A stretch of 64,000 bases of DNA from a bacterium (GTDB taxonomy: Bacteria; UBA8248), in contig OZ241996.1 of the NCBI GenBank assembly GCA_965204535.1, forward strand, positions 896,001 to 960,000, given 5' to 3'. A model generated the notes under the pieces. That model worked only from the letters and a program-made list of their open reading frames with translations. It ran no database searches and had not been told where the DNA came from. This document shows positions 1 through 23,567 of this stretch, in pieces. The first letter of the stretch is position 1. Every line of letters starts with the position of its first letter. The translations under genes were made by a program, and so were the position numbers.

Positions 1-783
1 CCGCAGCGGAATGCACTTTATCAGGCGACCGTGGCGCTCGTCCGTGCCTATGCCAATATCGCCGACGAACTGGAAATGATTGGCTACAGTAATGATGACA
101 TCAACCGCATCAAGCAACAGATTGATCATTCTCTAACTGTTCGGGATATTATCCGCAGAGCCAGTGGCGAGACGCTCGACCTCAAGGCATACGAGGCTGA
201 CATGCGGCATCTCATTGACACCTATATTGAGGCAGACGAGCCGCGAAAGATTTCTCCCTTCGATAGCATGAGCCTAATAGAGTTAATCGTGAAAATCGGG
301 GTCGATAATGCGATCGAAACGCAACTCGGGGGGTTGAAGATAAACAAGAACGCGGTTGCTGAGACAATAGAGAACAACGTTCGCAGCACAATCCTGAAGG
401 CGCATCTAACCGACCCGGCCTATTACAACAAGATGTCGACTCTACTCGACGAAATTATCGCGGCCCGAAAAGCAAAGGCCGTCGAGTATGAAGAATATTT
501 GCGGCGTATCGCGGAACTGGCGAAGAAGGTCGATAAAGGCAAAGATGCTGACACACCCAGGGTTCTGGATACACCAGGCAAGCGAGCTCTTTGGAACAAC
601 TTCGAGCGAAACGAAACACTGGCGCTCAAAGTCGATGCGGCCGTAAAAGAAGTACGCTCCGATGACTGGCGTGGCATTCAGGCTCGTGAGCAAATTATCA
701 AATCAGCTTTGTACGGTATCTTGCAGGATGAGGTGGAAGTTGAGCGAATTTTCTTGGTCATCAAGGCGCAAAGAGAGTACTGA
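1..783 (+). CDS. hsdR: Type I restriction enzyme subunit R, C-terminal part (5' end lies outside the window)
   Basis: Frame open from base 1. Contains 'DLKAYEADMRHLIDTYIEA...AVAETIENNVR...DPAYYNKMSTLLDEII...DDWRG', typical of HsdR C-termini, and is followed by the usual M48/DUF45 gene. Confidence 0.85.
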   Translation, partial: PQRNALYQATVALVRAYANIADELEMIGYSNDDINRIKQQIDHSLTVRDIIRRASGETLDLKAYEADMRHLIDTYIEADEPRKISPFDSMSLIELIVKIGVDNAIETQLGGLKINKNAVAETIENNVRSTILKAHLTDPAYYNKMSTLLDEIIAARKAKAVEYEEYLRRIAELAKKVDKGKDADTPRVLDTPGKRALWNNFERNETLALKVDAAVKEVRSDDWRGIQAREQIIKSALYGILQDEVEVERIFLVIKAQREY

Positions 784-1514
784 TGAACGCCCAACTCGAT
801 CTTAGTGGGGTAGAAGTGGATGTCATCTTCAAAGACATCAAGAATGTTCATCTCAGTGTTTATCCTCCCACTGGCCGGGTACATATCTCCGCCCCTAAAC
901 ATATGAGCCTTGACACCGTTCGCGTGTTCGCTGTTTCCAAACTTGCCTGGATCAAAAAACAACAGAAAAAACTCCAGGAACAAGAACGCGAAACAGCGCG
1001 CGACTATATCGACCGGGAAAGTCACTATGTTTGGGGCAAGCGCTATTTACTCAAGATTGTCGAAGTGAATGATGCGCCGTCGGTTGAATTGAAGGCCAGC
1101 AACATGATTCTGCGGGTTCGTCCTGGCACCAGCGCCGAGGCTAGAGCAGCCATTATTTCTAAGTGGTACCGTAAGCAGATAAAGGCGATTATTCCGGATC
1201 TTCTCGCGAAGTGGGAGCCGATCATAGGCGTAAACGTTGAGCGTGTTTTTGTGCAAAAAATGAAGACGAAATGGGGAAGTTGCAATCCCGATGGGCATAG
1301 TCTTCGCCTCAATACCGATTTGGCCAAGAGACCGTTAAATTACCTTGAGTACATCCTCGTGCACGAGCTAACACACCTACTTGAAAAGACACACAACGAC
1401 CGCTTTACTACACTGATGGACCGATTCATGCCGCAGTGGCGAGAGTATCGAGAAATTCTCAATACAGGCCTGCTCACGCACGAGGATTGGGCTACAAAAC
1501 CTAACCAACGATAG
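783..1514 (+). CDS. M48/DUF45 (YgjP-like) zinc metallohydrolase associated with type I RM
   Basis: 'MKTKWGSCN', 'LRLNTDL', 'YILVHELTHL..THNDRF' (HExxH). TGATG overlap with the hsdR stop. Confidence 0.9.
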   Translation: MNAQLDLSGVEVDVIFKDIKNVHLSVYPPTGRVHISAPKHMSLDTVRVFAVSKLAWIKKQQKKLQEQERETARDYIDRESHYVWGKRYLLKIVEVNDAPSVELKASNMILRVRPGTSAEARAAIISKWYRKQIKAIIPDLLAKWEPIIGVNVERVFVQKMKTKWGSCNPDGHSLRLNTDLAKRPLNYLEYILVHELTHLLEKTHNDRFTTLMDRFMPQWREYREILNTGLLTHEDWATKPNQR

Positions 1515-1713
1515 CTCTGACTGTCGGCACGAACTGAGTAGTACGCGTGACACAACAATCATAGTCAATCTGGGGATCACTGTAGACAAGCCGTCACGAG
1601 CCGAACTTTGGGGGGCGGCCGACAGAAACCCGCCAGGGCACGCAGTCTGGAATTGCCGCAGGCGGAGTTTGCACCGTCTTTATGGATTGCACAAAGTCAA
1701 GTCAGCATGACCA

Positions 1714-2973
1714 TTATAGATTCATCAAAAGCCAATTAGTAATTTTATGGACAGCAGAAAACGATTCGTAAAATCCGCCATGCCATATGGCCACACGATT
1801 CATCCTATCCGTTTCGAAGCTCTCTTGCTCAATAAAGTCGCTGACTGTGCGACTATCCTCTGATGGCCATCCAGAGCCATCATGAAAAGTCGTATTTAAA
1901 GTATGTTTTAGCTCCCATGACCAGAATTCATGAATCTCGAGACGTGCAGTCCTGTATCTCTGCGGGCATGATTTTTCCAAAATAACAACCTGTGGGAGAG
2001 ATCTGTCATGATGATCAGGTCCTTCAAACCTGTTCCGAAGCACTCGGTTGACGTGCAGGTCGCCAAATCCGTATCCGGCAATCAGGATCGCATCGGCTTC
2101 ATGCACGTGTCTGACAAGGGTCGAATAGAATGTTTGATATGGCTCGGCCAGGAGCTGATCCAGTTTGAATCCACCTGCGATCAATGTTGTCAGAGGTATT
2201 GATCTGAAATCCTGCGCCATATCGACTTCCGGAATGCCGGAATCCGTAAATGCTTCTCCAAGTTCTTCTTTCCAGACAATCCACGGCCTGCTTATTTCGT
2301 CGCTGATGCAATGATGAACAGAGCCGTGAATGTGGTAGATGAATCCCCACTCTCGGCGCTGGCTAACGCATAACGGATCAAAGAATCCAGAACAATCAAA
2401 TCCTTTGAATGCCTCAGGCCATGCAGTATGGGCGGCAGTATCGTAGTTCAGGTTGTATATGCCGAGTTTAAAGCGCTCTTGGAGTTTGTGAAAGAAATTC
2501 ATATAGTCGGAAAATGCTGGCTTACGAGTATCAAGCGCTTTGCTTAGTTTCCGCATGTGGTCGGCCAGCTTCTCAAAAAGAAAAGTATGTTGATCCAGCA
2601 CTCGTTTCCTGGCGGCGTACTGGTCAGAACAGTCATGCAGCCAATCGAGCTCGCAAACCGGTCTACCGTCCCTTACCGCATCAGTGAAAGGGGTTCCGAA
2701 GGGAGGAGGCGACAGCCAACTCGCCAGTATATTCATCTCACCCAGCACGCGCTCGTAATTCGGGCGAATGCCGTAATGGTTTGTTCCGTAATAGCGCTCG
2801 AGCGCATCCCAAAGTACGTTGAACACATCGCGCCCTGCATCATTGGGTGGTTCCCGTTCCCATTTTCGACTCCAGCGCTTCATCTGTTTATCGATGTTTT
2901 CAACGCTCGGCATACCGCAGGGGATGGAGCTTCCTGCTCCCAAGATGACGAGGAGTTTCGGCTTTCTGTCCAT
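1714..2973 (-). CDS. SIR2-family (SIR2_2-like) protein, putative anti-phage NADase
   Basis: Sirtuin motifs 'VILGAGSS..GMP', 'YNLNYD', 'YHIHGSV', 'IAGYGFGDLHVN'. Confidence 0.8.
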   Translation of the reverse strand: MDRKPKLLVILGAGSSIPCGMPSVENIDKQMKRWSRKWEREPPNDAGRDVFNVLWDALERYYGTNHYGIRPNYERVLGEMNILASWLSPPPFGTPFTDAVRDGRPVCELDWLHDCSDQYAARKRVLDQHTFLFEKLADHMRKLSKALDTRKPAFSDYMNFFHKLQERFKLGIYNLNYDTAAHTAWPEAFKGFDCSGFFDPLCVSQRREWGFIYHIHGSVHHCISDEISRPWIVWKEELGEAFTDSGIPEVDMAQDFRSIPLTTLIAGGFKLDQLLAEPYQTFYSTLVRHVHEADAILIAGYGFGDLHVNRVLRNRFEGPDHHDRSLPQVVILEKSCPQRYRTARLEIHEFWSWELKHTLNTTFHDGSGWPSEDSRTVSDFIEQESFETDRMNRVAIWHGGFYESFSAVHKITNWLLMNL

Positions 2974-3707
2974 TCAAAGGTCACTCGCATTTAATGGCTT
3001 CGTCAATTCGTTCATTGAACTGCGAAAGTGCGCAAGTAGCATCATCCTGTTCTTCACGAATGTATTTTTTCTACACATTACCCAATATTCAAGAGCACTA
3101 ATATAGGAATATTCTGGTGTGTACAAAAATATTGACATACTTATGTGCAGATGTGAGGAGCGGTGCTCCCGAAACAGGAAGGGAAAATCTTGAATGGGCA
3201 CCTCAAGAATCTTGCTTTAGCCATAATGCTAGTCTCACCGATGCAAAAAGTAATTTCAGTTCTGAATACGGGGAAATATGGAACTGTCGCCTGGTCCTTG
3301 ACGCTCGTTCTGGTTTGTTTCTAGTGTTGACGTTTCCTGTGGATTCGAATTGATTTGCAAATCATGCTGAAGAGGTAATCTCAAACATATTGAAAGAATC
3401 TATCAAAACGGCGAACTATCAAGAATTCCGTTCTAGGCCGCCAAATTCAATTAATTCAGAATTATTGTGCCATCGATTCAACGCTTGAAATTTACCATCC
3501 CGATGTTGAATAGTTTCCTGATTTAGGAAAAATAAACCCTGCCTACCCACGTATATAATTCCATAATCAACCGCCAATAAGGACATTGAAACATATATAA
3601 ACCCGGGAATAACTGGAAATGCAGCGTCCAAAGTATGATGATTGGATCTGTATGGTCGGCTGAGGAAATGGCTCTATCCAGCATCAACAGACAAGAGAGG
3701 AATCTAA

Positions 3708-4061
3708 ATGAAACGAGATATGGAACTTGTCAGGAAAATTCTCCAGCACGCAGAGGCGGACGAGGATGGAGACATAAGCCTATCGAATATTGATGCTGGG
3801 CACTCGATCGATGAAATTGAATTACACGTTGAACTCATGGCGGAAGCGGGACTTGTGGATGCTACGATAACTCACGGAATGGATGGGCCCGGGCACTCAA
3901 TCATTTTTTGCAAAGTGAACAGGTTGACGTGGGATGGACACGAGTTTCTTGAGGCTTCGCGCAAAGATACTCGTTGGAATCTAGCGAAGAAGATGTGCAT
4001 AGAGCAAACAGGAGGCCTTTCGCTCAGCATCTTGAAAGAAATATTAAAGCAAATTCTTTAG
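3708..4061 (+). CDS. DUF2513 family protein
   Basis: 'MKRDMELVRKIL...LMAEAGLV...RLTWDGHEFLEASR...W'. RBS GAGG upstream. Confidence 0.85.
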   Translation: MKRDMELVRKILQHAEADEDGDISLSNIDAGHSIDEIELHVELMAEAGLVDATITHGMDGPGHSIIFCKVNRLTWDGHEFLEASRKDTRWNLAKKMCIEQTGGLSLSILKEILKQIL

Positions 4062-4639: not shown

Positions 4640-4800
4640 GTATGTGGACGCGCCAGTTGATGCAAACATGTCGCCTGAAATTTCGGGGCAGTGAATAGTC
4701 GCAGTCGTATAATGGTCCGATGTGAATTAAACAGTGGGGTGAGCGCGGCTTAAAAAGCATCAGCTCAAACCGACTAAGCCACACAAAATCAATAAATGCC
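4640..4800 (-). mobile_element. Possible remnant of an IS110/IS1111-family 3' non-coding end, no transposase
   Basis: Minus strand reads CACATCGGACC..TATACGACTGCGAC...TTGCATC...GGCGCGTCCACATA, resembling the motif order I recall for IS1111-type right ends. Not verified by search. Confidence 0.35.
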
Positions 4801-4816
4801 TCCGGCATTAGGGACA

Positions 4817-4842
4817 ATATCACCACGTGACCGAATGATTAC
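4817..4842. repeat. Degenerate IS66-type terminal inverted repeat in the flank of the IS dimer
   Basis: atatcaccacgtgaccgaatgattac matches the element's TIR ccatcacggcccgcccgaacgcttac at 17/26 positions without gaps, including the terminal TTAC. Confidence 0.6.
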
Positions 4843-4850
4843 CGACAGTC
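4843..4850. repeat. 8-bp target site duplication CGACAGTC (copies at 4843-4850, 8264-8271, 11685-11692)
   Basis: The same octamer abuts every TIR. 8-bp TSDs are typical of IS66. Confidence 0.95.
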
Positions 4851-4919
4851 GTAAGCGTTCGGGCGGGCCGTGATGGTAGTGCCTTGAAGCAGTAGTTCGG
4901 GCCGGAATGGGGGATGATT

Positions 4920-5792
4920 TTACCGGTTGAGGACTTGCTTCCAGTTTCTGCGCAACGGTCGTAGCCAGATGTCCTTTTTCGGTTGGTCTCGTTTCGTGTA
5001 TCTGTCGTAGCGTCCACGCCCCTGGGTCATACCGACGTGAATCCACCCCGATGCCCTGTAGACGGCGCCGGTGTAGCGCGGCGTCTCGACGAAGGTCTCG
5101 ACGAGGACGGGTGTCGTGCCATAGCGCTCGGTCCAGTCCTCGGGCAGGCGCCTGCGGATGATGGCGAGGAGGTGTGAGCCGAGGTTGAGGATCCTGATCC
5201 ATGGCAGGATGAGGAACCTCGGGTTGTCGACCACGAGGGGGAGGTTCTTCTCGCGCAGCTGCGGCGTCCAGCCGATGAAGCTGTCGCGCGGGGCGAGCTT
5301 CCACGCGGCGGTGGAGAAGCCGAGCATGGCGAGGGGCCTGCCGCCCCGGTCGTGGACGGCGTAGCGCATCTGCGCGCCGACGAGGGTCTTGTAGCCGAGG
5401 TAGTGGTAGCGGGCGACGAACTCGTTCCAGAGCCTGCCCTCGCGGGTTCCGCGCACGGCGACGCGCATATCGAGGGGGCGGACTTCGTCGAGGGTCTCAG
5501 GCGCCGGGATGAGGGGAGGTTCGGTGTCGGGTCCGAAGACGATCGGCCCGGGCCGGTTCTGGCGCCACTTCGGTGGGGGCAGCGTGATCAGGCCGTCCTT
5601 GTGCATGGCCAGCATAGTCACCCGGGCCATCATGTCCTTGAGTCCGCCGTCGGGCTTGTACCAGCCGATTCGGCGGCAGAACTCCTTCGATAGCGCATGG
5701 CGGTTGAGCGCAGGTGGACCTGCGATCAGTTCGCGCAGCAGCGCCATCTCTTCCGTCGTGAAGTCGCGTCCGTGGTAGCGGCACTCGGTCAC
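4920..5792 (-). CDS. DUF4338 (Druantia DruA-like) protein carried inside the IS
   Basis: 'HYLGYK..VGAQMRY', 'GFSTAAW..RDSFIGW', 'NPRFLILPW', 'DWTERYG..PVLVETFV', 'YRASGW..VG.TQGRGR'. Probable N-terminal wHTH. Starts 4 nt after the transposase stop. Confidence 0.85.
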   Translation of the reverse strand: MTECRYHGRDFTTEEMALLRELIAGPPALNRHALSKEFCRRIGWYKPDGGLKDMMARVTMLAMHKDGLITLPPPKWRQNRPGPIVFGPDTEPPLIPAPETLDEVRPLDMRVAVRGTREGRLWNEFVARYHYLGYKTLVGAQMRYAVHDRGGRPLAMLGFSTAAWKLAPRDSFIGWTPQLREKNLPLVVDNPRFLILPWIRILNLGSHLLAIIRRRLPEDWTERYGTTPVLVETFVETPRYTGAVYRASGWIHVGMTQGRGRYDRYTKRDQPKKDIWLRPLRRNWKQVLNR

Positions 5793-5796
5793 GGCG

Positions 5797-8151
5797 TCAT
5801 CCCGGCGCCGTGAGGGCGCGCCTGCGCTCCGTGCTCATCGACCAGGGCAGCCACGCGGAGAGGTCCCCGGGCGCCCGGCCGCCGTTCTCCGCGCAGGCCG
5901 TGAGCCATGCCTCCAGCCAGCGGAGCGGGTCGACCCCGTTCGACGCGAGGGTTCCGAGGACCGAGTACATCATCGCCGTAAACCTGGCGCCGGCCTCGCT
6001 GTCGGAGCCGAACGAGAGCCGCCTGCCGATCACAGGGCCCCGAAGCGCACGTTCGCTGGCGTTGTTATCCATCGGCACCGAGGGGCGTTCGATGAAGACG
6101 CTCAGCCCCTCGCGGTGGTTCAGCAGCGAGCGAAGCGCCTTGCCCTCGCGCGCCTGCGCGGGCAGAGCGGCCATCTCCCGTCGGGCCTGCGCGAACAGGT
6201 CCTTGAGCGCCTTCTTCAATTCGTCGTGCGCCGCGTCGAACGCCGCATCCTGGCGTTCGACGCCCGGGTCGTAACTGGCCAGGCGCGCCTCGTTCAGGCG
6301 GTAAAGCAAGGCAATCCGCTCGATCCATCTCTCGCACCACGGCGTCAGCCGCTCATCGCCGGCGGCGCAGTGGATATAATCGCGCCGGACGTGACTCCAG
6401 CACCATGCGAGAGTCACCAGACCCCCGGGAATGCGCGCCAGCTTCTTGTAGGCGCTGTAGCGGTCGCAGACGATGACCGTATGGGAGCCGGCCGCGCCGA
6501 ACAGCTTCATCGCGACCTCAGCACTCCGCGAGGGGTCGACGTGGAAGTAGACGGAGTCTGCGCTGACCGAGGTCCACAGCCAGGCGCGGCTCGAGCGTCC
6601 TTGTTCGCGAAGCGACTGAACGCGCCACGTCGTCTCGTCCCCGTGACGCACCGCCGCTTCGTTCTGGCGGTCGAGGATCGCCGCAGCCAGCGGCTCGAAG
6701 AGCGGCGTGAAGCGGTGCGTGCTGTCGCCCAGTGTGCCTGCAGAGACCGGAAGCCCCTGGTCGGAGAGCCACGCGGCGACCCGGCGCAGCGGGCGGAAGC
6801 AGGCGTAGCGCTCGAACAGGAAGCGCGCCCACACGCTCGTCCCGTAAGGCGTGCCCGCGAACAGGCGCGGCGCGGCGGGCGCCGACACTTCCACCGGAGA
6901 CGACGCGCACGCGCATCTCCTGCGCCATCTCGGACGGCGGATGACGCGCTTGTGGGCCGAGACTTCGATCTCGAAGATGGAGGAGACCTCGGCGCCATTG
7001 GCCACGTAGGGCTTCCCGCAACCGGCGCAGACGCGCGCACCGGCCGGCGGGTTGCGAACTTCGGTCCTCTCATCGAGCGCGGGCCGCGGGGTGCGGCCAT
7101 GACCGGCGGCGCCGGGTTGCCGGCCGCGCCTGCGCTCCGAGCGCGGCCTCTCCTGCCGTTCGCTCTTGCGCCCGAACAGTCTTCTCGCCAGCACCGCTCC
7201 GGTGGCGCGAAGCTTCGCGAGATCGGCCTCCAGCCGCGCCCGGATGGTCTCTGACTTGCGGAGCGCCCTGCGAAGACGCCCGTTCTCCCTCGACAGCGAC
7301 CTGAGCGCCGTCTTCTGGCGCCGCGACCTCCCCAGGGCCTTGCGCAGTTCCTCATCTGCACGAGACGGCGACTTCGAGCGCGCCGCCTCGAGAGCGCGCA
7401 GCAACCGCGCCTTCAGCCGTTCGGTCGCAATGCCTACGGCCCCCAGGGAGACTTCAAGACGGTAGACCTCCGCAGACAGCGACTCGACCACCTCCGCCTG
7501 GTCGCGCAATCGCCTCAACTTCCTGTAGAGCCCGATGGCCTCCTCGTCCAGGCTCCGAATGGTCTCCTTGTCGGTCGCCGACTTCTGCTTCTCCAGGGCC
7601 AGACGATCTTCGAGCCGGGCAACTTCCTTCTCCCGCCGGCCGACCTCCTTGCGCAGGGCATGAATCGTCTCCTTGCGCTCCTCCAGGGCCTTGCGCAGCC
7701 GCCCCGCCTCCCCCGGCGACGGCACGCCCGAGAGCTCCTTGCGAAGCCGGACGACCTCCATGCGCAGCGACATGAGCGGGCTGCGCTTGCGCGGATCGAC
7801 CCCCGCCTCCGCAAGCAGCTTCTCCAGCCGCGCCACTTCCGCCTTGAGCGACAGCGCGTCCTTCGCCGCGCGGCGGGCTTCCTTCGCCTCCCCGGCGGCC
7901 GCCTCGAGCTTCTTCCGGCTGGCGTCGAGATGCCGCTTCAGCTTGCCCGCACGGGAGCGGGAATCCACTTCCGCCCAACGCAACTCCTCGCAGCGCGCCT
8001 CCGCCGCCTCCGCGCGCGCACGCTCGCGCTCGTACAGCGAACGCCAGTACGCCTCTGCGGTTGTGGACAACCCGGGGGAATGAGGCCATGGCTCATCCGG
8101 CCTCTCGGCCAACGCCAACTCCGTCTCGACAGCTTCTGCGCGAATCTTCAT
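5797..8151 (-). CDS. IS66-family transposase (TnpC-like) with ~320-aa N-terminal coiled coil
   Basis: 'LFGRKSE', zinc finger 'CAGCG...CAC', 'HGDETTW', 'VCDRYSAY', 'CWSHVRR', 'MDNNASERALR'. Confidence 0.93.
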   Translation of the reverse strand: MKIRAEAVETELALAERPDEPWPHSPGLSTTAEAYWRSLYERERARAEAAEARCEELRWAEVDSRSRAGKLKRHLDASRKKLEAAAGEAKEARRAAKDALSLKAEVARLEKLLAEAGVDPRKRSPLMSLRMEVVRLRKELSGVPSPGEAGRLRKALEERKETIHALRKEVGRREKEVARLEDRLALEKQKSATDKETIRSLDEEAIGLYRKLRRLRDQAEVVESLSAEVYRLEVSLGAVGIATERLKARLLRALEAARSKSPSRADEELRKALGRSRRQKTALRSLSRENGRLRRALRKSETIRARLEADLAKLRATGAVLARRLFGRKSERQERPRSERRRGRQPGAAGHGRTPRPALDERTEVRNPPAGARVCAGCGKPYVANGAEVSSIFEIEVSAHKRVIRRPRWRRRCACASSPVEVSAPAAPRLFAGTPYGTSVWARFLFERYACFRPLRRVAAWLSDQGLPVSAGTLGDSTHRFTPLFEPLAAAILDRQNEAAVRHGDETTWRVQSLREQGRSSRAWLWTSVSADSVYFHVDPSRSAEVAMKLFGAAGSHTVIVCDRYSAYKKLARIPGGLVTLAWCWSHVRRDYIHCAAGDERLTPWCERWIERIALLYRLNEARLASYDPGVERQDAAFDAAHDELKKALKDLFAQARREMAALPAQAREGKALRSLLNHREGLSVFIERPSVPMDNNASERALRGPVIGRRLSFGSDSEAGARFTAMMYSVLGTLASNGVDPLRWLEAWLTACAENGGRAPGDLSAWLPWSMSTERRRALTAPG

Positions 8152-8340
8152 GCCGACATCATTAGCACATGTCGAATCGCGTTACCAGTCGCCCGGGAAA
8201 ATTCTATCCGATGGAGGCGATGCGCCCGGCGCCGGGTCCATCACGGCCCGCCCGAACGCTTACCGACAGTCGTAAGCGTTCGGGCGGGCCGTGATGGTAG
8301 TGCCTTGAAGCAGTAGTTCGGGCCGGAATGGGGGATGATT

Positions 8341-9213
8341 TTACCGGTTGAGGACTTGCTTCCAGTTTCTGCGCAACGGTCGTAGCCAGATGTCCTTTTT
8401 CGGTTGGTCTCGTTTCGTGTATCTGTCGTAGCGTCCACGCCCCTGGGTCATACCGACGTGAATCCACCCCGATGCCCTGTAGACGGCGCCGGTGTAGCGC
8501 GGCGTCTCGACGAAGGTCTCGACGAGGACGGGTGTCGTGCCATAGCGCTCGGTCCAGTCCTCGGGCAGGCGCCTGCGGATGATGGCGAGGAGGTGTGAGC
8601 CGAGGTTGAGGATCCTGATCCATGGCAGGATGAGGAACCTCGGGTTGTCGACCACGAGGGGGAGGTTCTTCTCGCGCAGCTGCGGCGTCCAGCCGATGAA
8701 GCTGTCGCGCGGGGCGAGCTTCCACGCGGCGGTGGAGAAGCCGAGCATGGCGAGGGGCCTGCCGCCCCGGTCGTGGACGGCGTAGCGCATCTGCGCGCCG
8801 ACGAGGGTCTTGTAGCCGAGGTAGTGGTAGCGGGCGACGAACTCGTTCCAGAGCCTGCCCTCGCGGGTTCCGCGCACGGCGACGCGCATATCGAGGGGGC
8901 GGACTTCGTCGAGGGTCTCAGGCGCCGGGATGAGGGGAGGTTCGGTGTCGGGTCCGAAGACGATCGGCCCGGGCCGGTTCTGGCGCCACTTCGGTGGGGG
9001 CAGCGTGATCAGGCCGTCCTTGTGCATGGCCAGCATAGTCACCCGGGCCATCATGTCCTTGAGTCCGCCGTCGGGCTTGTACCAGCCGATTCGGCGGCAG
9101 AACTCCTTCGATAGCGCATGGCGGTTGAGCGCAGGTGGACCTGCGATCAGTTCGCGCAGCAGCGCCATCTCTTCCGTCGTGAAGTCGCGTCCGTGGTAGC
9201 GGCACTCGGTCAC
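8341..9213 (-). CDS. DUF4338 (DruA-like) protein, copy 2
   Basis: Translation identical to 4920-5792. Confidence 0.85.
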   Translation of the reverse strand: MTECRYHGRDFTTEEMALLRELIAGPPALNRHALSKEFCRRIGWYKPDGGLKDMMARVTMLAMHKDGLITLPPPKWRQNRPGPIVFGPDTEPPLIPAPETLDEVRPLDMRVAVRGTREGRLWNEFVARYHYLGYKTLVGAQMRYAVHDRGGRPLAMLGFSTAAWKLAPRDSFIGWTPQLREKNLPLVVDNPRFLILPWIRILNLGSHLLAIIRRRLPEDWTERYGTTPVLVETFVETPRYTGAVYRASGWIHVGMTQGRGRYDRYTKRDQPKKDIWLRPLRRNWKQVLNR

Positions 9214-9217
9214 GGCG

Positions 9218-11572
9218 TCATCCCGGCGCCGTGAGGGCGCGCCTGCGCTCCGTGCTCATCGACCAGGGCAGCCACGCGGAGAGGTCCCCGGGCGCCCGGC
9301 CGCCGTTCTCCGCGCAGGCCGTGAGCCATGCCTCCAGCCAGCGGAGCGGGTCGACCCCGTTCGACGCGAGGGTTCCGAGGACCGAGTACATCATCGCCGT
9401 AAACCTGGCGCCGGCCTCGCTGTCGGAGCCGAACGAGAGCCGCCTGCCGATCACAGGGCCCCGAAGCGCACGTTCGCTGGCGTTGTTATCCATCGGCACC
9501 GAGGGGCGTTCGATGAAGACGCTCAGCCCCTCGCGGTGGTTCAGCAGCGAGCGAAGCGCCTTGCCCTCGCGCGCCTGCGCGGGCAGAGCGGCCATCTCCC
9601 GTCGGGCCTGCGCGAACAGGTCCTTGAGCGCCTTCTTCAATTCGTCGTGCGCCGCGTCGAACGCCGCATCCTGGCGTTCGACGCCCGGGTCGTAACTGGC
9701 CAGGCGCGCCTCGTTCAGGCGGTAAAGCAAGGCAATCCGCTCGATCCATCTCTCGCACCACGGCGTCAGCCGCTCATCGCCGGCGGCGCAGTGGATATAA
9801 TCGCGCCGGACGTGACTCCAGCACCATGCGAGAGTCACCAGACCCCCGGGAATGCGCGCCAGCTTCTTGTAGGCGCTGTAGCGGTCGCAGACGATGACCG
9901 TATGGGAGCCGGCCGCGCCGAACAGCTTCATCGCGACCTCAGCACTCCGCGAGGGGTCGACGTGGAAGTAGACGGAGTCTGCGCTGACCGAGGTCCACAG
10001 CCAGGCGCGGCTCGAGCGTCCTTGTTCGCGAAGCGACTGAACGCGCCACGTCGTCTCGTCCCCGTGACGCACCGCCGCTTCGTTCTGGCGGTCGAGGATC
10101 GCCGCAGCCAGCGGCTCGAAGAGCGGCGTGAAGCGGTGCGTGCTGTCGCCCAGTGTGCCTGCAGAGACCGGAAGCCCCTGGTCGGAGAGCCACGCGGCGA
10201 CCCGGCGCAGCGGGCGGAAGCAGGCGTAGCGCTCGAACAGGAAGCGCGCCCACACGCTCGTCCCGTAAGGCGTGCCCGCGAACAGGCGCGGCGCGGCGGG
10301 CGCCGACACTTCCACCGGAGACGACGCGCACGCGCATCTCCTGCGCCATCTCGGACGGCGGATGACGCGCTTGTGGGCCGAGACTTCGATCTCGAAGATG
10401 GAGGAGACCTCGGCGCCATTGGCCACGTAGGGCTTCCCGCAACCGGCGCAGACGCGCGCACCGGCCGGCGGGTTGCGAACTTCGGTCCTCTCATCGAGCG
10501 CGGGCCGCGGGGTGCGGCCATGACCGGCGGCGCCGGGTTGCCGGCCGCGCCTGCGCTCCGAGCGCGGCCTCTCCTGCCGTTCGCTCTTGCGCCCGAACAG
10601 TCTTCTCGCCAGCACCGCTCCGGTGGCGCGAAGCTTCGCGAGATCGGCCTCCAGCCGCGCCCGGATGGTCTCTGACTTGCGGAGCGCCCTGCGAAGACGC
10701 CCGTTCTCCCTCGACAGCGACCTGAGCGCCGTCTTCTGGCGCCGCGACCTCCCCAGGGCCTTGCGCAGTTCCTCATCTGCACGAGACGGCGACTTCGAGC
10801 GCGCCGCCTCGAGAGCGCGCAGCAACCGCGCCTTCAGCCGTTCGGTCGCAATGCCTACGGCCCCCAGGGAGACTTCAAGACGGTAGACCTCCGCAGACAG
10901 CGACTCGACCACCTCCGCCTGGTCGCGCAATCGCCTCAACTTCCTGTAGAGCCCGATGGCCTCCTCGTCCAGGCTCCGAATGGTCTCCTTGTCGGTCGCC
11001 GACTTCTGCTTCTCCAGGGCCAGACGATCTTCGAGCCGGGCAACTTCCTTCTCCCGCCGGCCGACCTCCTTGCGCAGGGCATGAATCGTCTCCTTGCGCT
11101 CCTCCAGGGCCTTGCGCAGCCGCCCCGCCTCCCCCGGCGACGGCACGCCCGAGAGCTCCTTGCGAAGCCGGACGACCTCCATGCGCAGCGACATGAGCGG
11201 GCTGCGCTTGCGCGGATCGACCCCCGCCTCCGCAAGCAGCTTCTCCAGCCGCGCCACTTCCGCCTTGAGCGACAGCGCGTCCTTCGCCGCGCGGCGGGCT
11301 TCCTTCGCCTCCCCGGCGGCCGCCTCGAGCTTCTTCCGGCTGGCGTCGAGATGCCGCTTCAGCTTGCCCGCACGGGAGCGGGAATCCACTTCCGCCCAAC
11401 GCAACTCCTCGCAGCGCGCCTCCGCCGCCTCCGCGCGCGCACGCTCGCGCTCGTACAGCGAACGCCAGTACGCCTCTGCGGTTGTGGACAACCCGGGGGA
11501 ATGAGGCCATGGCTCATCCGGCCTCTCGGCCAACGCCAACTCCGTCTCGACAGCTTCTGCGCGAATCTTCAT
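9218..11572 (-). CDS. IS66-family transposase, copy 2
   Basis: Translation identical to 5797-8151. Confidence 0.93.
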   Translation of the reverse strand: MKIRAEAVETELALAERPDEPWPHSPGLSTTAEAYWRSLYERERARAEAAEARCEELRWAEVDSRSRAGKLKRHLDASRKKLEAAAGEAKEARRAAKDALSLKAEVARLEKLLAEAGVDPRKRSPLMSLRMEVVRLRKELSGVPSPGEAGRLRKALEERKETIHALRKEVGRREKEVARLEDRLALEKQKSATDKETIRSLDEEAIGLYRKLRRLRDQAEVVESLSAEVYRLEVSLGAVGIATERLKARLLRALEAARSKSPSRADEELRKALGRSRRQKTALRSLSRENGRLRRALRKSETIRARLEADLAKLRATGAVLARRLFGRKSERQERPRSERRRGRQPGAAGHGRTPRPALDERTEVRNPPAGARVCAGCGKPYVANGAEVSSIFEIEVSAHKRVIRRPRWRRRCACASSPVEVSAPAAPRLFAGTPYGTSVWARFLFERYACFRPLRRVAAWLSDQGLPVSAGTLGDSTHRFTPLFEPLAAAILDRQNEAAVRHGDETTWRVQSLREQGRSSRAWLWTSVSADSVYFHVDPSRSAEVAMKLFGAAGSHTVIVCDRYSAYKKLARIPGGLVTLAWCWSHVRRDYIHCAAGDERLTPWCERWIERIALLYRLNEARLASYDPGVERQDAAFDAAHDELKKALKDLFAQARREMAALPAQAREGKALRSLLNHREGLSVFIERPSVPMDNNASERALRGPVIGRRLSFGSDSEAGARFTAMMYSVLGTLASNGVDPLRWLEAWLTACAENGGRAPGDLSAWLPWSMSTERRRALTAPG

Positions 11573-12105
11573 GCCGACATCATTAGCACATGTCGAATCG
11601 CGTTACCAGTCGCCCGGGAAAATTCTATCCGATGGAGGCGATGCGCCCGGCGCCGGGTCCATCACGGCCCGCCCGAACGCTTACCGACAGTCACACTCAG
11701 GGATACGCAGACGTTAGATTTTCCTTGTTTCCGTTTTGATTACTTTCTGTAGTAGACGACTTCGAGACGAGATAGAGGATAATGAATCTTTCTCAATGAT
11801 ATCAATACGATAGAAATATTTTACAGCCACCGGAAATCCCCCACTGCCTGAAAACACGCGAAAGACTGGTGAATCAAGGAACTGAGCGTCCGGGCTAGCC
11901 TACACCCGATGTAGAAAACCCATAATCCAAGTACAAACCTAAAAAAGCTAGCAGCAAACCCGTGGCCAAGGCGAATGTGACCTAGACGAAGATGAGCGAC
12001 CTTCCAAAGATAGCAGGGCGCTAGTCTTTAGGAATAGACAGGTTCTGGTTACGTCCTTTAGCGGGCAAGAAAACACAATACAGTCGCTTTTCACATTCAA
12101 GACGT

Positions 12106-14618: not shown

Positions 14619-16415
14619 CTAGTTATCATCGCCGCTCGGCGTATCAGGATCGCCCGATGTTTCAGGTCGGCTTTCTGCCTGATTGGCGCCCCGATCCTGT
14701 AGCATTTTTATGATCGCAGGATCATTATTGTGCTTTGCCGCCCAGTCCAAGGGTGTTTCGCCGTCATCATTCCGCGCTTTGACGTCGGCGCCCCTGTCCA
14801 GAAGTAGCTTTACAACCGCAGAATTCTTATTCCATTTCGCCGCGCTATGCAGAGGCACCCAGCCCCATTTATTATGTGCATTCACATCAGCGCCTCGATC
14901 CAAAAGTAGCTCTACGACTGCAGGATTTCGATTCAATCCCGCCGCGATGTGCAGAGGCGTGCTACCAAATCGAGTCCGAGCATGCACATCGGCACCCTTA
15001 TCTAGAAGTAGTTCCACGACCTCAGGATTTTTATTGCGCGCCACTGCATAATGTATGGGTAACCGTCCTAAGTAACCCTTTTCATTCACGTTAGCTCCCC
15101 GACGGATCAACTCCATGGCGACTGCGGGATTTTCATTGGTACCCGACGCTATATGCAACGCATTCTTATAAGTTGATTCGAACTTTTGTTTGTATCGATA
15201 CGAAATTACATCGTTTAGATTCGCGCCGCGCTCCAACAGCAGAGCAATTACTTCCGGGTATTTGTTGTATCTCGCGGCAATATGCAGTGGCTTATATAAT
15301 TCCATATCACTTGGATGCACCTCATGCGGAATCTCATCTCTTGCATCGATATCGGCGCCAAGATCCAGTAGCGCCTTGATAACGGCGGGGCCTTCGTTCG
15401 CGCGCAAGGCCTTGTGCAGTCCACGGGCGCCGCCGTATTTCTTCCGGGCGACTCTCGCAGCCGTCAGGCCCTCCGCCGTCCTGCCCTTCGGTCCCTTGAT
15501 CGAGGGGTCGGCCCCCGCCTTCGTCAACAAATCGACGACCGCCGAGTGCCCGTGCGCTGCCGCCATGAACAGCGCAGTCGCGCCGTCCGCCGCGCGGGCG
15601 TCGACTTCCGCCTTCGCCTCGATCAGCGACTCGACCATCGGCGCGTAGCCCTTGTTCGCCGCGTGCATCAGCGCCGTCCAGCCGCGAGCGTCGCGCGCGT
15701 TCACGTCCGCACCCGCCTCAAGCGCCGCCTTGAGCGCATTGACATCTCCTGCTAAGACCGCGCGTTGCAGGACATCGGGACGCACCTTAGGGCGGGAAGG
15801 CACTCTCGCGCTGGTTCCCGCACGTCGGCCTTTCGCAGCGGCCCGCATGGCACGCAACCCGCTAGGCGTCAGCGTATCCACGGGCGGCAGTCCCGCATCT
15901 CTCAGAAACCTCCCGTAGGCCTTCGCCGTGCGCTCGTTCCAGCGGCCATCGACCGGTCCCGGCTCGTAGCCGAGCGCCGCCAGCAACTCTTTCGCCTCGC
16001 GGATCGCCCGTGGGGGCGGTGGAGACGAAGCCTTCTTTATCTCCCCACCGCCCGGCCGCCACGAGCGAGCGCGTTCCTGAGCAGACGCAACCTGCTGCGG
16101 CGTCATCTTCGCCGCCAGGGCGTCGCGCTCTTTCGCCGCTTCCATCTCGCCCCGGCCCGCCGCCAGGTTGAACCACATGTGCGCCACAACGTAATCCTGC
16201 GGAGCGCCCACTCCCCGCATAAAAAGACGCCCGAGCGCCAGCATCGCCCGCCTGTCACCCTCATTCGCCGCCGCGCGCCACTCCTTGAGCGCCTCGGCGG
16301 GTTTCCCCGCGTCCCACGCGCGCTTGCCCACTGCGTAGTCCGCCTGTGCGGGCAATGCGCAGATGAGCATCAAGGCCAGCGCCAGCATCAGCACCCGTAG
16401 TGTGTGTCGAGTCAT
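14619..16415 (-). CDS. Secreted Sel1 + peptidoglycan-binding + ankyrin-repeat protein (paralogue A)
   Basis: Signal peptide (..LPAQA), Sel1 'AMLALGRLFMRGVGAPQDYVVAHMWFNLAA', PG-binding-like 'LAALGYEPGPVDG', many ankyrin repeats 'TPLHIAA..N.NPAVVELLLDRGADVNA'. Start placed at the ATG after GGAGAG. Confidence 0.88.
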   Translation of the reverse strand: MTRHTLRVLMLALALMLICALPAQADYAVGKRAWDAGKPAEALKEWRAAANEGDRRAMLALGRLFMRGVGAPQDYVVAHMWFNLAAGRGEMEAAKERDALAAKMTPQQVASAQERARSWRPGGGEIKKASSPPPPRAIREAKELLAALGYEPGPVDGRWNERTAKAYGRFLRDAGLPPVDTLTPSGLRAMRAAAKGRRAGTSARVPSRPKVRPDVLQRAVLAGDVNALKAALEAGADVNARDARGWTALMHAANKGYAPMVESLIEAKAEVDARAADGATALFMAAAHGHSAVVDLLTKAGADPSIKGPKGRTAEGLTAARVARKKYGGARGLHKALRANEGPAVIKALLDLGADIDARDEIPHEVHPSDMELYKPLHIAARYNKYPEVIALLLERGANLNDVISYRYKQKFESTYKNALHIASGTNENPAVAMELIRRGANVNEKGYLGRLPIHYAVARNKNPEVVELLLDKGADVHARTRFGSTPLHIAAGLNRNPAVVELLLDRGADVNAHNKWGWVPLHSAAKWNKNSAVVKLLLDRGADVKARNDDGETPLDWAAKHNNDPAIIKMLQDRGANQAESRPETSGDPDTPSGDDN

Positions 16416-16662
16416 GTTCTCTCCCTCTGCTCTCGTAGAATGAAACTCTTCACAATGCCATCCCACGACGTTTTGAGGTCTTACTCCATATACGGAAGTT
16501 CCTTGTTTCCAAAGAACATAACGAATCTATTCCATGATCCCGCGAGTCACAACTGAACGCATGGTCGTTAATGTCTGATATGGCTATGCGCGCCCAAATC
16601 AAACCGTGGCAAACCGAACTGGGGCTTCGTCCCCTAAACCCCCGAGGTAAAGAGGCGAAGAT

Positions 16663-18573
16663 TCAAGGTCCGAGCGTCCGGGCTACGCGAAACCCGGAAG
16701 TGTTGAAACGGAGTCCGTACCCTAACTTGCCGCGGATAGCAGAGAAGAGGCTCAACGGATCGCTGGACCAGGAACCGCCGCGCAGAACGCGGCGCGAGCA
16801 ATCGCCGTTCGTCCACGCGCGCCCGTCCAACGGCGCGCCCGCGTAGCGTGCGTTCCAACAGTCCACAACCCACTCCCACACGTTGCCCAGCACGTCGTGA
16901 AGACCGAACCCGTTCGTAGAAAACGATCCCGCGGGCGCCGTATGAACGAAACCGTCTCGGCAAGACGCCACTCCGTGTCCACCGCGCCAGTTACTGTACT
17001 GCTTCTTAAGCGTCCCGTCGGCCCCGTTCGCGTGGGTGCACTGTGCCAATGTGTCATCTCCCCAGTAGCGCGACGTGCGCGTCCATCCACGCGCCGCGTA
17101 TTCCCATTCCGCCTCACTCAATAATCGGTATCTTTCCCCCGTTTTGTCCGACAGCCACGCCACGTACGCCTTCGCGTCATCCCAATTTACACACACGACA
17201 GGGTCTAAGTTCGTCTGGGAAAAACCTGGATCGCGCCACGAGCGTGCGGCGTCTTTTTTCCACTTACCATCATAAATATAACACCCGCTATCCATGTCGC
17301 GGCCCGTCATACGAACAAAGGCGCCAAACTCGCGCCTCGTCACCTCGTGTTTGCCAATCGCGAAGGGTTTCGGAATCGTCACGCGGTGGCGGGGGCCTGC
17401 ATACTCCCACGATGAAGAACCCATCATGAAAGAACCGTAGGGCACGACCACCATCTCCGGGCATTCCGGGCAGTCTCGAAATACCTTGCCTTTCGGCCAC
17501 CTACGTTTTAGGTCTTCCGCTGCTTCAACTTGCGCCCACGTCTTTCCCGCCAGCAGAGCGAGAACGCCGGGACCCTCTCCCTTCCCTCTCGCCACCTCCG
17601 CAGTGCCGTATCTCCTGCGCGCCACATCCATAGACGACTTTCCCTTCGGTCCCTTGATCGATGGATCCGCTCTCCCCTTCATCAGCAACTCAATGACTTC
17701 GGAGTACCCGTGCACCGCCGCCATGAAAAGGGCCGTAGCGCCGTCCGCGGCGCGTTCGTCGACCTTCGCCTTCGCTTCGATCAGCGACTCGACCATCGAC
17801 GCGTAGCCTTTGTTCGCCGCGTGCATCAGCGCCGTCCAGCCGCGAGCGTCGCGCGCGTTCACATCCGCACCCGCCGCAAGCGCTGCCTTTAGCCCGTCGA
17901 CATTCCCCGCCAGCACCGCTCGGTGCAAGGCATCGGGACGCACCTTAGGGCGGGATGGCACTCTCGCGCTGTTTCCCGCACGTCGGCCTTTCGCAGCGGC
18001 CCGCATGGCACGCAACCCGCTAGGCGTCAACGTATCCCCCGGCGGCAGGCCCGCATCGCGCAGAAACCCCGCATAGGCCTTCGCCGTGCGCTCGTTCCAG
18101 CGACCATCGAGAGTACCCGGCTTGTAACCCAGCGCCGCCAGCAACTCTTTCGCCTCGCGGATCGCCCGTGGGGGAGGTGAAGCCGAAGCAGATTTTCTCT
18201 TTTCTCCACCCGGCCGCCACGAGCGAGCGCGTTCCTGAGCAGACGCAACCTGCTGCGGCGTCATTTTCGCCGCCAGGGCGTCGCGCTCTTTCACCGCTTC
18301 CATCTCGCCCCGGCCCGCCGCCAAGTTGAACCACATGTGCGCCACAACGTAATCCTGCGGAGCGCCCACTCCCCGCATAAAAAGACGCCCGAGCGCCAGC
18401 ATCGCCCGCCTGTCGCCCGAATTCGCCGCCGCGCGCCACTCTCTGAGCGCCTCGGCGGGCCTTCCCGCGTCCCATGCCCGCTTGCCCGCAGCGTAGTTCG
18501 CCTGTGCGGGCAATGCGCAAATGAGCATAAAAGCTAACGCCGGTATCACCACCCGCAGAGCATGTCGAATCAT
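16663..18573 (-). CDS. Secreted Sel1 + PG-binding + ankyrin + FGE-sulfatase (C-type lectin fold) protein (paralogue B)
   Basis: Same N-terminal module, then 'FRDCPECPEMVVVP.GSFMMGS', 'RLLSEAEWEYAAR', 'NGFGLHDVLGNVWEWV', 'RVLRGGSW...GFRVART'. Confidence 0.92.
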   Translation of the reverse strand: MIRHALRVVIPALAFMLICALPAQANYAAGKRAWDAGRPAEALREWRAAANSGDRRAMLALGRLFMRGVGAPQDYVVAHMWFNLAAGRGEMEAVKERDALAAKMTPQQVASAQERARSWRPGGEKRKSASASPPPRAIREAKELLAALGYKPGTLDGRWNERTAKAYAGFLRDAGLPPGDTLTPSGLRAMRAAAKGRRAGNSARVPSRPKVRPDALHRAVLAGNVDGLKAALAAGADVNARDARGWTALMHAANKGYASMVESLIEAKAKVDERAADGATALFMAAVHGYSEVIELLMKGRADPSIKGPKGKSSMDVARRRYGTAEVARGKGEGPGVLALLAGKTWAQVEAAEDLKRRWPKGKVFRDCPECPEMVVVPYGSFMMGSSSWEYAGPRHRVTIPKPFAIGKHEVTRREFGAFVRMTGRDMDSGCYIYDGKWKKDAARSWRDPGFSQTNLDPVVCVNWDDAKAYVAWLSDKTGERYRLLSEAEWEYAARGWTRTSRYWGDDTLAQCTHANGADGTLKKQYSNWRGGHGVASCRDGFVHTAPAGSFSTNGFGLHDVLGNVWEWVVDCWNARYAGAPLDGRAWTNGDCSRRVLRGGSWSSDPLSLFSAIRGKLGYGLRFNTSGFRVARTLGP

Positions 18574-18624
18574 CTTCTCGTCTCCGATGAAAAGAAAATA
18601 TTCAAGTCATCATGAATTCTGCGG

Positions 18625-20433
18625 CTAGTTCTCATTGTCGCTCGGTGTATCGGGATCGCCCGATGTATCAGATCGGCTCTCTGCCTGATAGGCACCCCGA
18701 TCCTGTAGCATTTTTATGATCGCAGGATCATTATTGTGCTTTGCTGCCCAGTCCAGGGGTATTTCGCCCTTATCATTCCGCGCTTTGACGTCGGCGCCCC
18801 TGTCCAGAAGTAGCTTTACAACCGCAGAATTCTTATTCCATCTCGCCGCGATGTGCAGGGGCGTATCCCCATCTTTACTTCGTGCGTTTACGTCGGTGCC
18901 ACGATCCAGTAGTAGTTTTGAGGCCGCTGGGATTTTATTCCATCTTGCCGCACGGTGCAGGGGAGTATGCCCCCTTTTATTTCGTGCGTTCACGTCCGCG
19001 CCCCGATTGAGTAGCAACCTCGAGACCGCAAGGTTCTTGTTGAAACCCGCTGAATACATCAAAGGAGTATGACGCAATTCAGTACCCCGTACATCTACGT
19101 CGATGCCCCGTTCCAGAAGTATTTTTATGACCGCAGGATTTTCATTGTATGTCGCCGCTATATGCAACGCATTCTTATTAGTTGGGTCGTACACTGCCTT
19201 GTATCGATAAGATCGATAGGGAATTACATCGTTTAGATTCGCGCCGCGCTCCAACAGCAAGGCTATTACTTCCGGGTGTTTGTTGTATCTCGCGGCAATA
19301 TGCAGTGGCGTGTAGAAGTATAGAAAACCTGTAAACACCTCATGCGGAATCTCATCTCTTGCGTCGATGTCGGCGCCAAGATCCAGAAGCGCCTTGATCA
19401 CGGCGGGGCCTTCATTCGCGCGCAAGGCCTTGTGCAGTCCACGGGCGCCGCCGTATTTCTTCCGGGCGACTCTCGCGGCCGTCAGGCCCTCCACCGTCCT
19501 ACCCCTCGGTCCTTCGATAGTAGGGTCGGCTCCCGCCTTTGTTAGCAGCTTGATAACCGCCGAGTGCCCGTGCGCCGCCGCCATGAACAGCGCAGTCGCG
19601 CCGTCCGCCGCGCGAGCGTCGACTTCCGCCTTCGCCTCGATCAGCGACTCGACCATCAGCGCGTAGCCCTTGTTCGCCGCGTGCATCAGCGCCGTCCAGC
19701 TGCGTGCATCGCGCGCATTCACGTCCGCACCCGCCGCAAGCGCCGCCTTGAACCCGTCGATGTTTCCCGCCAACACCGCTCGGTGCAAGGCATCGGGACG
19801 CACCTTCGAACGCGAAGAAGCCCGCGCGCCGGTTTTCGCTCCTTGCCGTTTCGCAGCGGCCCGCATGGCACGCAACCCACTAGGCGTCAACGTATCCCCC
19901 GGCGGAAGGCCCGCATCGCGGAGAAATCTCCCGTAGGCCTTCGCCGTGCGCTCGTTCCAGCGACCATCGACCGGACTCGGCTTGTAACCCAGCGCCGCCA
20001 GCAACTCTTGCGCCTCACGGATCGCCCGTGGGGGCGGCGAAGATGTAGCCTGTTTCCTATCATCTCCGCCCGACCGCCACGAGTGCGCGCGCTCCTGCGC
20101 AGATGCAATCTGCTGCGGCGTCATCTTCTCCGCCAGGGCGTCGCGCTTTTTCGCCGCTTCCATCTCACCCCGGCCCGCCGCCAGGTTGAACCACATATGC
20201 GCCAGGATAAAATTCTGCGGAGCGCCCACTCCCCGCATAAAAAGACGCCCGAGCGCCAGCATCGCCCGCCTGTCGCCGGCATTCGCGGCAGCGCGCCACT
20301 CCTTGAGCGCCTCGGCAGGTCTCCCCGCGTCCCACGCACGCTTGCCAGCAGCGTAGTCCGCCTGTGCGGGCAAGGCGCAAATGATCGTCAAGGCCAACAC
20401 TGGAATTACCGCCCGCAGCGCATGTCGAATCAT
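18625..20433 (-). CDS. Secreted Sel1 + PG-binding + ankyrin-repeat protein (paralogue C)
   Basis: Same architecture and near-identical C-terminal tail as paralogue A. Start 'MIRHALR' as in paralogue B. Confidence 0.88.
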   Translation of the reverse strand: MIRHALRAVIPVLALTIICALPAQADYAAGKRAWDAGRPAEALKEWRAAANAGDRRAMLALGRLFMRGVGAPQNFILAHMWFNLAAGRGEMEAAKKRDALAEKMTPQQIASAQERAHSWRSGGDDRKQATSSPPPRAIREAQELLAALGYKPSPVDGRWNERTAKAYGRFLRDAGLPPGDTLTPSGLRAMRAAAKRQGAKTGARASSRSKVRPDALHRAVLAGNIDGFKAALAAGADVNARDARSWTALMHAANKGYALMVESLIEAKAEVDARAADGATALFMAAAHGHSAVIKLLTKAGADPTIEGPRGRTVEGLTAARVARKKYGGARGLHKALRANEGPAVIKALLDLGADIDARDEIPHEVFTGFLYFYTPLHIAARYNKHPEVIALLLERGANLNDVIPYRSYRYKAVYDPTNKNALHIAATYNENPAVIKILLERGIDVDVRGTELRHTPLMYSAGFNKNLAVSRLLLNRGADVNARNKRGHTPLHRAARWNKIPAASKLLLDRGTDVNARSKDGDTPLHIAARWNKNSAVVKLLLDRGADVKARNDKGEIPLDWAAKHNNDPAIIKMLQDRGAYQAESRSDTSGDPDTPSDNEN

Positions 20434-20947
20434 CTTCTCGTCTCCCGTGGAATGGAACGCAACCAAAAGAATACGGAGATATTCACCAGCTTCTAACCCG
20501 TACACGCATCCCTTTCGACACTCCGCACGAGTCATCAGGGATTCCCCCTACAATGCCCGTTCTTCTGAACCGGCTGCTTCAGGTATTTTTTAATATACAA
20601 TACCAGCACAGCGGTTGTTATTCACTTTCATGTTATGACGATCATGGGTTCCAATAAACGTTGCGGGAGACTGGTTTGCAATCGGAAGTAGTCTGTTGAG
20701 CCTCGGGCTCAGGAGGAGTGTTGCGCAATGCGCCGACCTGGACGCGCAGTGGTGTCACTGCATTGATTCCTGTGAGGAGAGAGCCGTCGCAGAGCCGGGC
20801 CGCACTACGACAACTGCAACAATGCCTGTATACTTGAGCACTTACAATCGCATGTGGATACCGAACTTCCTGACTGGGGCGATTTTTCCAGAAGCGCCTC
20901 AGTTGAAAATGCAATTTCTGGTCGGCGATAATATGGAGCGTAAAAAA

Positions 20948-23331: not shown

Positions 23332-23567
23332 GTAAACGTTCGCTAGCACCGTGACGGAATAGGTTTCAGCGCTGTTCGAGTCCAGATTCATGTTGACTTA
23401 TATGAGATGAAAGTCGATGTCGGTATGCCGCCCATACAGCACAAGTGCTTGGAGATTCTGCCGATTTGTATAGGGGCGATAGCTTTGGGCTGGTTCAGTT
23501 ATGTTCTGACAAGATACCGGATTCCCGCAGTTCTGGGGCTGCTATCACGGCCCGGATGAACGTTTAC
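23332..23567. mobile_element. 236-bp MITE-like remnant with IS66-type TIRs related to the element at 4851
   Basis: Left gtaaacgttcgctagcaccgtgacgg (19/26) and right ctatcacggcccggatgaacgtttac (21/26) match the IS66 TIR and face inward. No ORF, no intact TSD. Confidence 0.7.

Follow-up and report, generated by a model that had tools for sequence, protein, structure and literature searches.

What makes an insertion sequence (IS) settle twice, in the same orientation, at a single spot? This question is raised by the 64,000-nucleotide stretch of bacterial DNA analyzed here (GTDB lineage UBA8248; GenBank assembly GCA_965204535.1, contig OZ241996.1, positions 896,001 to 960,000; hereafter, the window), in which two copies of an IS66-family element lie head to tail. 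The original prediction held that the transposase uses an existing IS end, even that of a relative, as a landing pad, so that the site is reused and the array can grow. Our analysis points to another landmark. We consider it probable that elements of this IS66 branch insert 59 to 61 or 67 to 72 bp from a motif that likely ends tyrosine-integrase elements and that, because the 8-bp target duplication rebuilds the target on the motif side at the same distance, sites are reused and arrays likely stack. What we observe directly are the offsets, the shifts between duplications, and the stacks of mixed elements.

The head-to-tail array with 8-bp spacing is as originally described. Copy 1 (positions 4851-8263, minus strand, 3413 bp, with perfect 26-bp terminal inverted repeats [TIRs] at 4851-4876 and 8238-8263) is identical to copy 2 (8272-11684, minus strand, with tnpC at 9218-11572 and a druA-like gene at 8341-9213). 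The 8-mer CGACAGTC, read on the plus strand, is present three times, starting at 4843, 8264, and 11685: as the motif-distal copy of the target duplication (4843-4850), as the spacer separating the two IS copies (8264-8271), and as the motif-proximal copy (11685-11692), which covers positions 52 to 59 of what we call motif A and is the predicted next landing site. The TIR-like 26-mer reported to end 8 bp from the array is also there, in the left host flank (4817-4842, 17/26 matches to the TIR), and it is not a chance match, given a genome background of 7e-5 per position for at least 17/26. It forms the end of a decayed 123-bp relic (4720-4842, no strand assigned) resembling a miniature inverted-repeat transposable element (MITE). 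Aligned without gaps, the relic agrees at 82/123 positions with a MITE that is intact in genome G012; its agreement with a MITE of the own genome is 67/123, and in this second comparison, 36/71 internal positions agree, versus a mean of 18.8 and a maximum of 33 in 10,000 shuffles. Similar MITEs of 123 and 235 bp are found elsewhere in the own genome, and the relic is likely the oldest occupant of the site.

Insertion sites relative to motif A

Motif A has a 51-bp core, which in the window occupies positions 11693-11743 (minus strand) with its first base 59 bp from the IS end; it is recognized there (E value of 2e-5) by a profile built from 10 copies unoccupied by the IS. The same profile detects 35 copies in the genome, a count that, like the others given for the motifs, includes identical copies on two contigs (C1:183477, 208127, 211487, and 221241 and C2:2956531, 7414, 10774, and 34468). 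These identical stretches, integrase genes included, suggest a duplicated region or an assembly overlap. The genome contains 13 IS copies at 10 loci, 3 of which are dimers with three different spacers; 11 of the 13 copies are identical, one differs by its terminal base, and one differs by 151 bases. At 7 of these 10 loci the element ends exactly 59 bp (five loci) or 60 bp (two loci) from the start of motif A, against a chance per insertion of 1e-4 (P of ~2e-26). The seven occupied motifs are only 27-41/51 identical to each other, and six of them have a target duplication of their own; since the motifs differ while most IS copies are identical, these insertions are independent and recent. Either IS end can face the motif (four and three loci). 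Counting any TIR-like end with at least 16/26 matches, 20 of the 35 motif A copies have one at offsets of 58 to 73. An exact 8-bp duplication is present at six of the seven single-copy loci. The locus that lacks it (C1:554250-557662, offset 59) holds the copy with the altered terminal base and possibly underwent an adjacent deletion.

Several points weigh against a strict rule. Three of the 10 own loci have no motif A, which makes the targeting a preference, and none of the 15 own-genome copies of a second motif, B (see below), is occupied. One of the off-motif IS copies (C2:2473032) lies within a G+C-rich palindromic intergenic repeat; several families of such repeats are present at 28741-63445 of the window. 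The window also contains two more minus-strand copies of motif A, at 23332-23636 and 24902-24952. Next to the partial motif at 23636 lies, at offset 69, a complete MITE of 235 bp, and a tRNA-Arg(GCG) called by aragorn at 23698-23781 adjoins it.

The same arrangement is seen in close relatives of the element. Of 26 loci (L023-L046, L070, and L084), 22 have an element end 59 to 72 bp from a motif, always at 59-61 or 67-72; two of these, L030 and L031, were counted across a TIR that an IS110-family element interrupts. The 21 distinct loci comprise 8 at offset 59 and 2 at 61 and, beyond an empty interval from 62 to 66, 11 at 67-72; five further ends lie at 61, 70, 70, 71, and 71. The four exceptions comprise L024, where the motif is 870 bp away across an intron-like remnant, the truncated L036, L042 at a contig end, and L043, in which the element was inserted 4 bp ahead of an integrase-like start. 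These loci are not independent, as 8 of the 22 positive ones come from a single genome and several have near-identical motifs, and no motif was found at four alphaproteobacterial loci with another type of TIR; both facts count against the proposed rule. For elements at offset 59, the target duplications mostly terminate with GTCG-like bases that belong to the motif, and those at offsets 69 to 72 share no common sequence, so that distance, not target sequence, sets the site. At L029 the element lies 59 bp from motif B, whose resemblance to motif A is mainly confined to two boxes, one at positions 1-12 and the other near 26-30. The two peaks of offsets are one helical turn apart, which points to a contact on one face of the DNA.

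Other mobile elements are found at these sites as well. The IS110-family element (Pfam IDs PF01548 and PF02371) in L030 and L031 (approximately 9230-10610) lies within the IS66 TIR, six bases in. The own genome has remnants at the corresponding position, following the start of a TIR at offset 59 (G000 C1:211487 and C1:755997). By eye, sequences resembling group II intron ends are found in or beside the IS66 TIRs at motif A in L024, L035, and L042 (approximately 5830-5895) and at C2:1735602, where an RVT_1 reading frame is nearby. Judging from these intron-like ends, motif A sites collect several kinds of mobile elements.

A second IS66 lineage, with TnpC ~35-40% identical to the one studied here, shows a spacing rule of its own. 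It is represented by 128 loci, those from metagenomes being mostly too short, and by 18 nonredundant elements with both ends and a target duplication (L048-L061, L064, L067, L090, L104, and L166 are loci of this lineage, which encodes TnpC only). In 17 of the 18 sites, a six-base motif that starts an imperfect palindrome of 27 to 29 bp is located exactly 4 bp beyond the duplication, and no other of 80 offsets exceeds 3 such sites; as the pattern was written after viewing the flanks and 12 of the 18 sites come from one genome, its P value is inflated. Two of these sites adjoin, by eye, tRNA 3'-like fragments and short direct repeats. The halves of the palindrome presumably resemble the IHF consensus.

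Nature of the landmark

What, then, is motif A? A clue comes from motif B, which is found in 15 copies directly preceding tandem genes for tyrosine integrases with Arm-DNA-bind_3 domains. As would be expected of an element boundary opposite the integrase end, 23 of the 35 motif A copies point toward a same-strand motif B within 100 kb. Shuffling of strands yields a mean of 13.0 such pairs and reaches 23 in 1 of 5,000 trials, whereas shuffling of positions yields a mean of 5.2 and reaches it in none of 2,000, statistics that are overstated because the copies cluster. Host-type genes often lie on one side of motif A and mobile cargo, including defence genes, a relaxase, and integrases, on the other, although many of the neighbors have no Pfam match. 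In addition, genomes G002 and G016 have the flanks of a 7.7-kb module consisting of motif A, the IS, integrases, and motif B (C1:554-562 kb) but lack the module itself; they account for 2 of 9 related loci, and the junction is not base exact. On the other side of the ledger, the remaining 7 of the 9 loci join different DNA or are uninformative, 12 of the 35 motif A copies have no matching motif B, and a search of 16 A-B pairs for a repeat of an attachment (att) site core revealed no clear or consistent one, the best pair having, by eye, a 5-bp word in common. On balance, these sequence patterns suggest that motif A is likely the arm-site-bearing end of an integrative element with tyrosine integrases. 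In an alignment of 17 copies, conservation extends beyond the core into an outer part of ~110 bp with an AT-rich box (11744-11860 in the window, minus strand), likely part of the same terminus.

Three other identities of motif A were considered and rejected. A known RNA finds no support in Rfam, which has no match in window positions 3000-27000 save a chance one on the hairpin formed by the TIR-8-TIR junction. An attC site and a tRNA-linked att site were judged by eye: most copies lack an adjoining full tRNA gene, and the MITE ends are inverted repeats of equal length without offset bases.

The tandem tyrosine integrases behind motif B, ~50% identical to each other within a pair, are encoded at G000 C1:183494-185828 and in about 11 other places. 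In the window, a low-GC stretch at 31-4061 encodes a YgjP-like peptidase, a SIR2-like protein, and a DUF2513 protein and probably represents defence-type cargo carried by the island at whose end the IS sits. Farther along, at 14619-20535, there are three paralogous genes for proteins of 615 to 636 aa; their N-terminal parts are common, with stretches of 84-91% identical DNA, and their C-terminal repeats differ.

Array formation and rival explanations

If distance from motif A sets the site, stacking would follow from the geometry of the duplication: each insertion leaves one copy of the 8-mer at motif positions 52-59, so that the target would be restored with its distance unchanged. In the window, the MITE would have come first, followed by one IS and then by a second IS on the motif side, so that age would fall toward the motif. 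Inverted IS pairs would be long unstable palindromes, and their loss may be the reason why the direct orientation prevails. Positioning of the transpososome would fall to a protein bound to the motif, most likely either the integrase on its arm-type sites or the transposase, itself reading the boxes.

Taken alone, the dimer in the window fits other routes too. In the dimer at C2:592780, the duplications are shifted by 1 bp and the spacer is 9 bp long, so that two insertions are needed, and successive offsets of 60 and 59 fit. An end-directed second insertion fits this dimer as well. In the dimer at C2:366268, the spacer ends in the first two bases of the TIR, which are missing from the host site; this points to an insertion overlapping the motif-side end of a resident copy and to a three-step history, although that history falls one base short of exact. 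A pattern search of 50 other genomes added eight TIR-spacer-TIR junctions, spread over six of them. G024 and G026 contain mixed stacks that start at the motif and extend away from it, with spacers of 8 bp: L222 and L228 consist of the motif, a MITE, 8 bp, and a truncated IS, and L230 consists of the motif, a MITE, 8 bp, and a second, 93.6% identical MITE, with three equal 8-mers. Thus, the claims that the site is reused, that it is shared with relatives, and that arrays grow hold up, with 3 dimers among the 10 own loci and mixed stacks in kin.

The landing pad itself fares worse. Under this reading, insertion would be targeted to inverted repeats (IRs), as in IS30 and IS911, with the transposase binding a resident end, even a relative's, and inserting 8 bp away. 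It has in its favor the TIR-like end 8 bp from the window array and the eight junctions in other genomes, seven of them with spacers of 8 or 9 bp. Furthermore, all three own dimers are direct repeats with left-right junctions, the type that, in the portion of PMC9333248 consulted, IS30 IR targeting gives exclusively; this agreement is also a point against distance from motif A as the sole guide. Nevertheless, the check set beforehand, scoring the flanks of all genomic copies, showed no enrichment and no preference for the element's own IR or IR-like sequence: a TIR-like 26-mer is present at 8 bp in just one host flank out of 20, and the other 19 average 6.9/26 matches versus a genome background of 7.0. 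For two filled sites, the genome also contains an empty paralogue (distal flanks 99/100 and 92/100 identical), and neither of these has a TIR-like end (best matches of 10 and 13 of 26); first insertions at offsets of 59-60 thus entered sites that lack a TIR in their empty paralogues. In kin, the IS of L023 landed within a TIR belonging to an older MITE, and that of L028 lies 16 bp away from one, in both cases with the motif offset kept. The dimers likewise follow the motif offset, and seven of the eight kin junction loci can be tied to motif A, the other (L225) being at a contig end with no motif visible. We therefore regard IR targeting as unlikely to be the primary rule, even though IS ends may be a secondary contributor to the choice of site.

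Tandem amplification of a single insertion, by recombination into the donor of an IS circle with 8 bases of flank or by unequal crossing-over between the duplicated 8-mers, would leave the motif to explain the first insertion only. It predicts exactly what the window dimer shows, identical copies and three identical 8-mers, and the consulted part of PMC9333248 names homologous recombination among the origins of IS30 dimers. It cannot, however, yield the shift at C2:592780, the spacer at C2:366268, or the stacks of nonidentical elements. We consider it quite improbable, although the window dimer by itself may have arisen in this way.

Absence of any active targeting, with insertions surviving only at element ends or hitchhiking on a spreading integrative element, might be suspected from the intergenic location of the element ends and from the one related genome with several copies next to near-identical motifs. 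We consider it very unlikely, as offsets precise to the base pair, with none at 62-66, cannot result from selection and the own-genome sites each have their own motif sequence and their own duplication.

The dimer itself is real. In run X22, the depth over the IS body is 262-278, compared to 20.6 and 23.3 in the flanks, a ratio of about 12 that fits the 12 identical or near-identical copies of the assembly and not the 9 that would remain were the dimers single. A 48-base contig crosses the TIR-8-TIR junction at a depth of 17, and two words common to the junction and the flank have depths of 39 and 37, about twice the single-copy value; in run X24, a 58-base junction contig has a depth of 3.3, versus 4.3 to 5.2 in the flanks. 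Both contigs are below the bridging length of 31 + 31 bases, in contigs of this kind rare IS circles would look like the chromosomal junction, and X22 and X24 may be the source sample of the assembly; run X1 contains diverged pieces only, and runs X2 to X21 hold small shares. The possibility raised with the original prediction, that the dimer was assembled from circle junctions, may draw on the lack of a public record spanning the whole 6.8-kb dimer but is extremely improbable in view of the junction at single-copy depth, the double-depth words, the ~12-fold depth of the IS, and the three different spacers of the three dimers.

The element, its family, and target choice

Which component could measure the distance? 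The element has two genes, both on the minus strand, and they fill it: the reading frame list contains no tnpA or tnpB. In copy 1, tnpC (5797-8151) encodes a DDE transposase of 784 aa with the IS66 domain (Pfam ID PF03050, E value of 1.6e-56) at residues 435-723 and, according to an alignment, an N-terminal extension missing from the distant relative compared. The second gene (4920-5792, 290 aa) begins 4 bp past the tnpC stop codon and encodes a DruA/DUF4338-like passenger protein (Pfam ID PF14236, E value of 2e-38). Its model, based on a deep alignment, has a pLDDT of 93 and a predicted GNAT fold: Foldseek matches are GNAT acetyltransferases, and phage Mu Mom (8bv8) is among them with an E value of 1.8e-5 and a TM score of 0.43. 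In line with this, DUF4338 is termed a GNAT domain in the portion of PMC10853773 consulted.

Two simple assignments of the selector role meet with difficulties. The DruA-like protein is not generally required, as elements of the distant lineage, with their 1.87 kb, can accommodate nothing besides TnpC and nevertheless select their sites, although it may have a role here. The offset may depend on how long the TnpC extension is, as proteins of 784 aa go with offsets of 59-61 and those of 767 to 772 aa with 67-72; against this, reading frames are broken in the offset-59 clade, and the tree does not separate the offsets cleanly.

The DDE_Tnp_IS66 transposase, the perfect 26-bp TIRs starting with GTAA, and the 8-bp duplication place the element in the IS66 family, outside the canonical tnpA-tnpB-tnpC group. 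It resembles ISBst12-group members (ISBst12 and ISDge4), which share the DDE_Tnp_IS66 domain, GTAA-type TIRs, the 8-bp duplication, and the lack of tnpA and tnpB; available parts of PMC12898284 describe a single open reading frame and an 8-bp repeat for this group. It differs from them in the 784-aa TnpC with a long N-terminal extension and in the conserved second, DUF4338/GNAT gene; as the group is defined by TnpC as the sole transposition gene, its membership is tentative. Fixed-distance targeting, as seen here, is not described for the group in those parts of PMC12898284.

With IS30 and IS911 the element shares head-to-tail dimers, short spacers, and left-right junctions (PMC9333248, in part). 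Unlike in those systems, insertions are positioned by reference to an external motif, a first insertion requires no IR, and spacers vary (8, 9, and 16 bp) with the motif offset. The portion of PMC5001619 consulted offers no help on circles of IS66. Another analogy is with the p-MULT 3/4 transposases (TnGBS, ISLre2, and ISKra4), DDE enzymes that, in the portion of PMC3942029 consulted, insert at a fixed distance from a protein-bound site, with perfect-IR elements doing so in both orientations; protein binding would have its counterpart here at motif A. Their landmark is a sigma-A promoter at 13 to 17 bp according to the same portion, whereas here it is likely the end of an integrative element at 59 to 72 bp and in two helical phases.

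Insertion at a set distance from a selector-bound site is also the rule for Tn7 with TnsD and attTn7, for CRISPR-associated transposons (CAST), and for the res-site hunters of the Tn5053 type, the last of which use another element's recombination site. In contrast to these, Pfam searches detect neither a TnsC/TniB ATPase nor a TnsD/TniQ selector among the two genes of the element, and, since sites are reused, there is no sign of target immunity.

We tentatively suggest, as a possibility somewhat short of even, that this IS66 branch comprises att-site hunters, whose transpososome would be tethered by a protein bound to the arm sites of tyrosine-integrase elements and would insert a fixed number of helical turns from there, without target immunity, and that fixed-distance choice may be general in TnpC-only IS66 elements, given that the distant lineage behaves likewise at 4 bp from a different palindromic end motif. 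Accessible passages of a 2026 paper call the transposition mechanism of IS66 insufficiently characterised (PMC12898284), and we found no report of fixed-distance targeting, att-end targeting, or dimers for IS66 in literature coverage that leaves aside ISfinder and the two main IS66 papers, where remarks on targets may be present. The natural insertions described here provide a rule of base-pair precision, with a 51-bp landmark, empty and filled paralogues, two helical phases, and the spacing of a second lineage, and they make target choice in IS66 directly testable with a two-gene element. If the suggestion is correct, site choice would be an overlooked general property of TnpC-only IS66 elements, and the two genes would amount to a system for targeted integration. 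An att-hunting IS66 would ride on integrative elements, avoid host genes, and build stacks, which would explain why IS elements accumulate where integrative elements end and move along with them.

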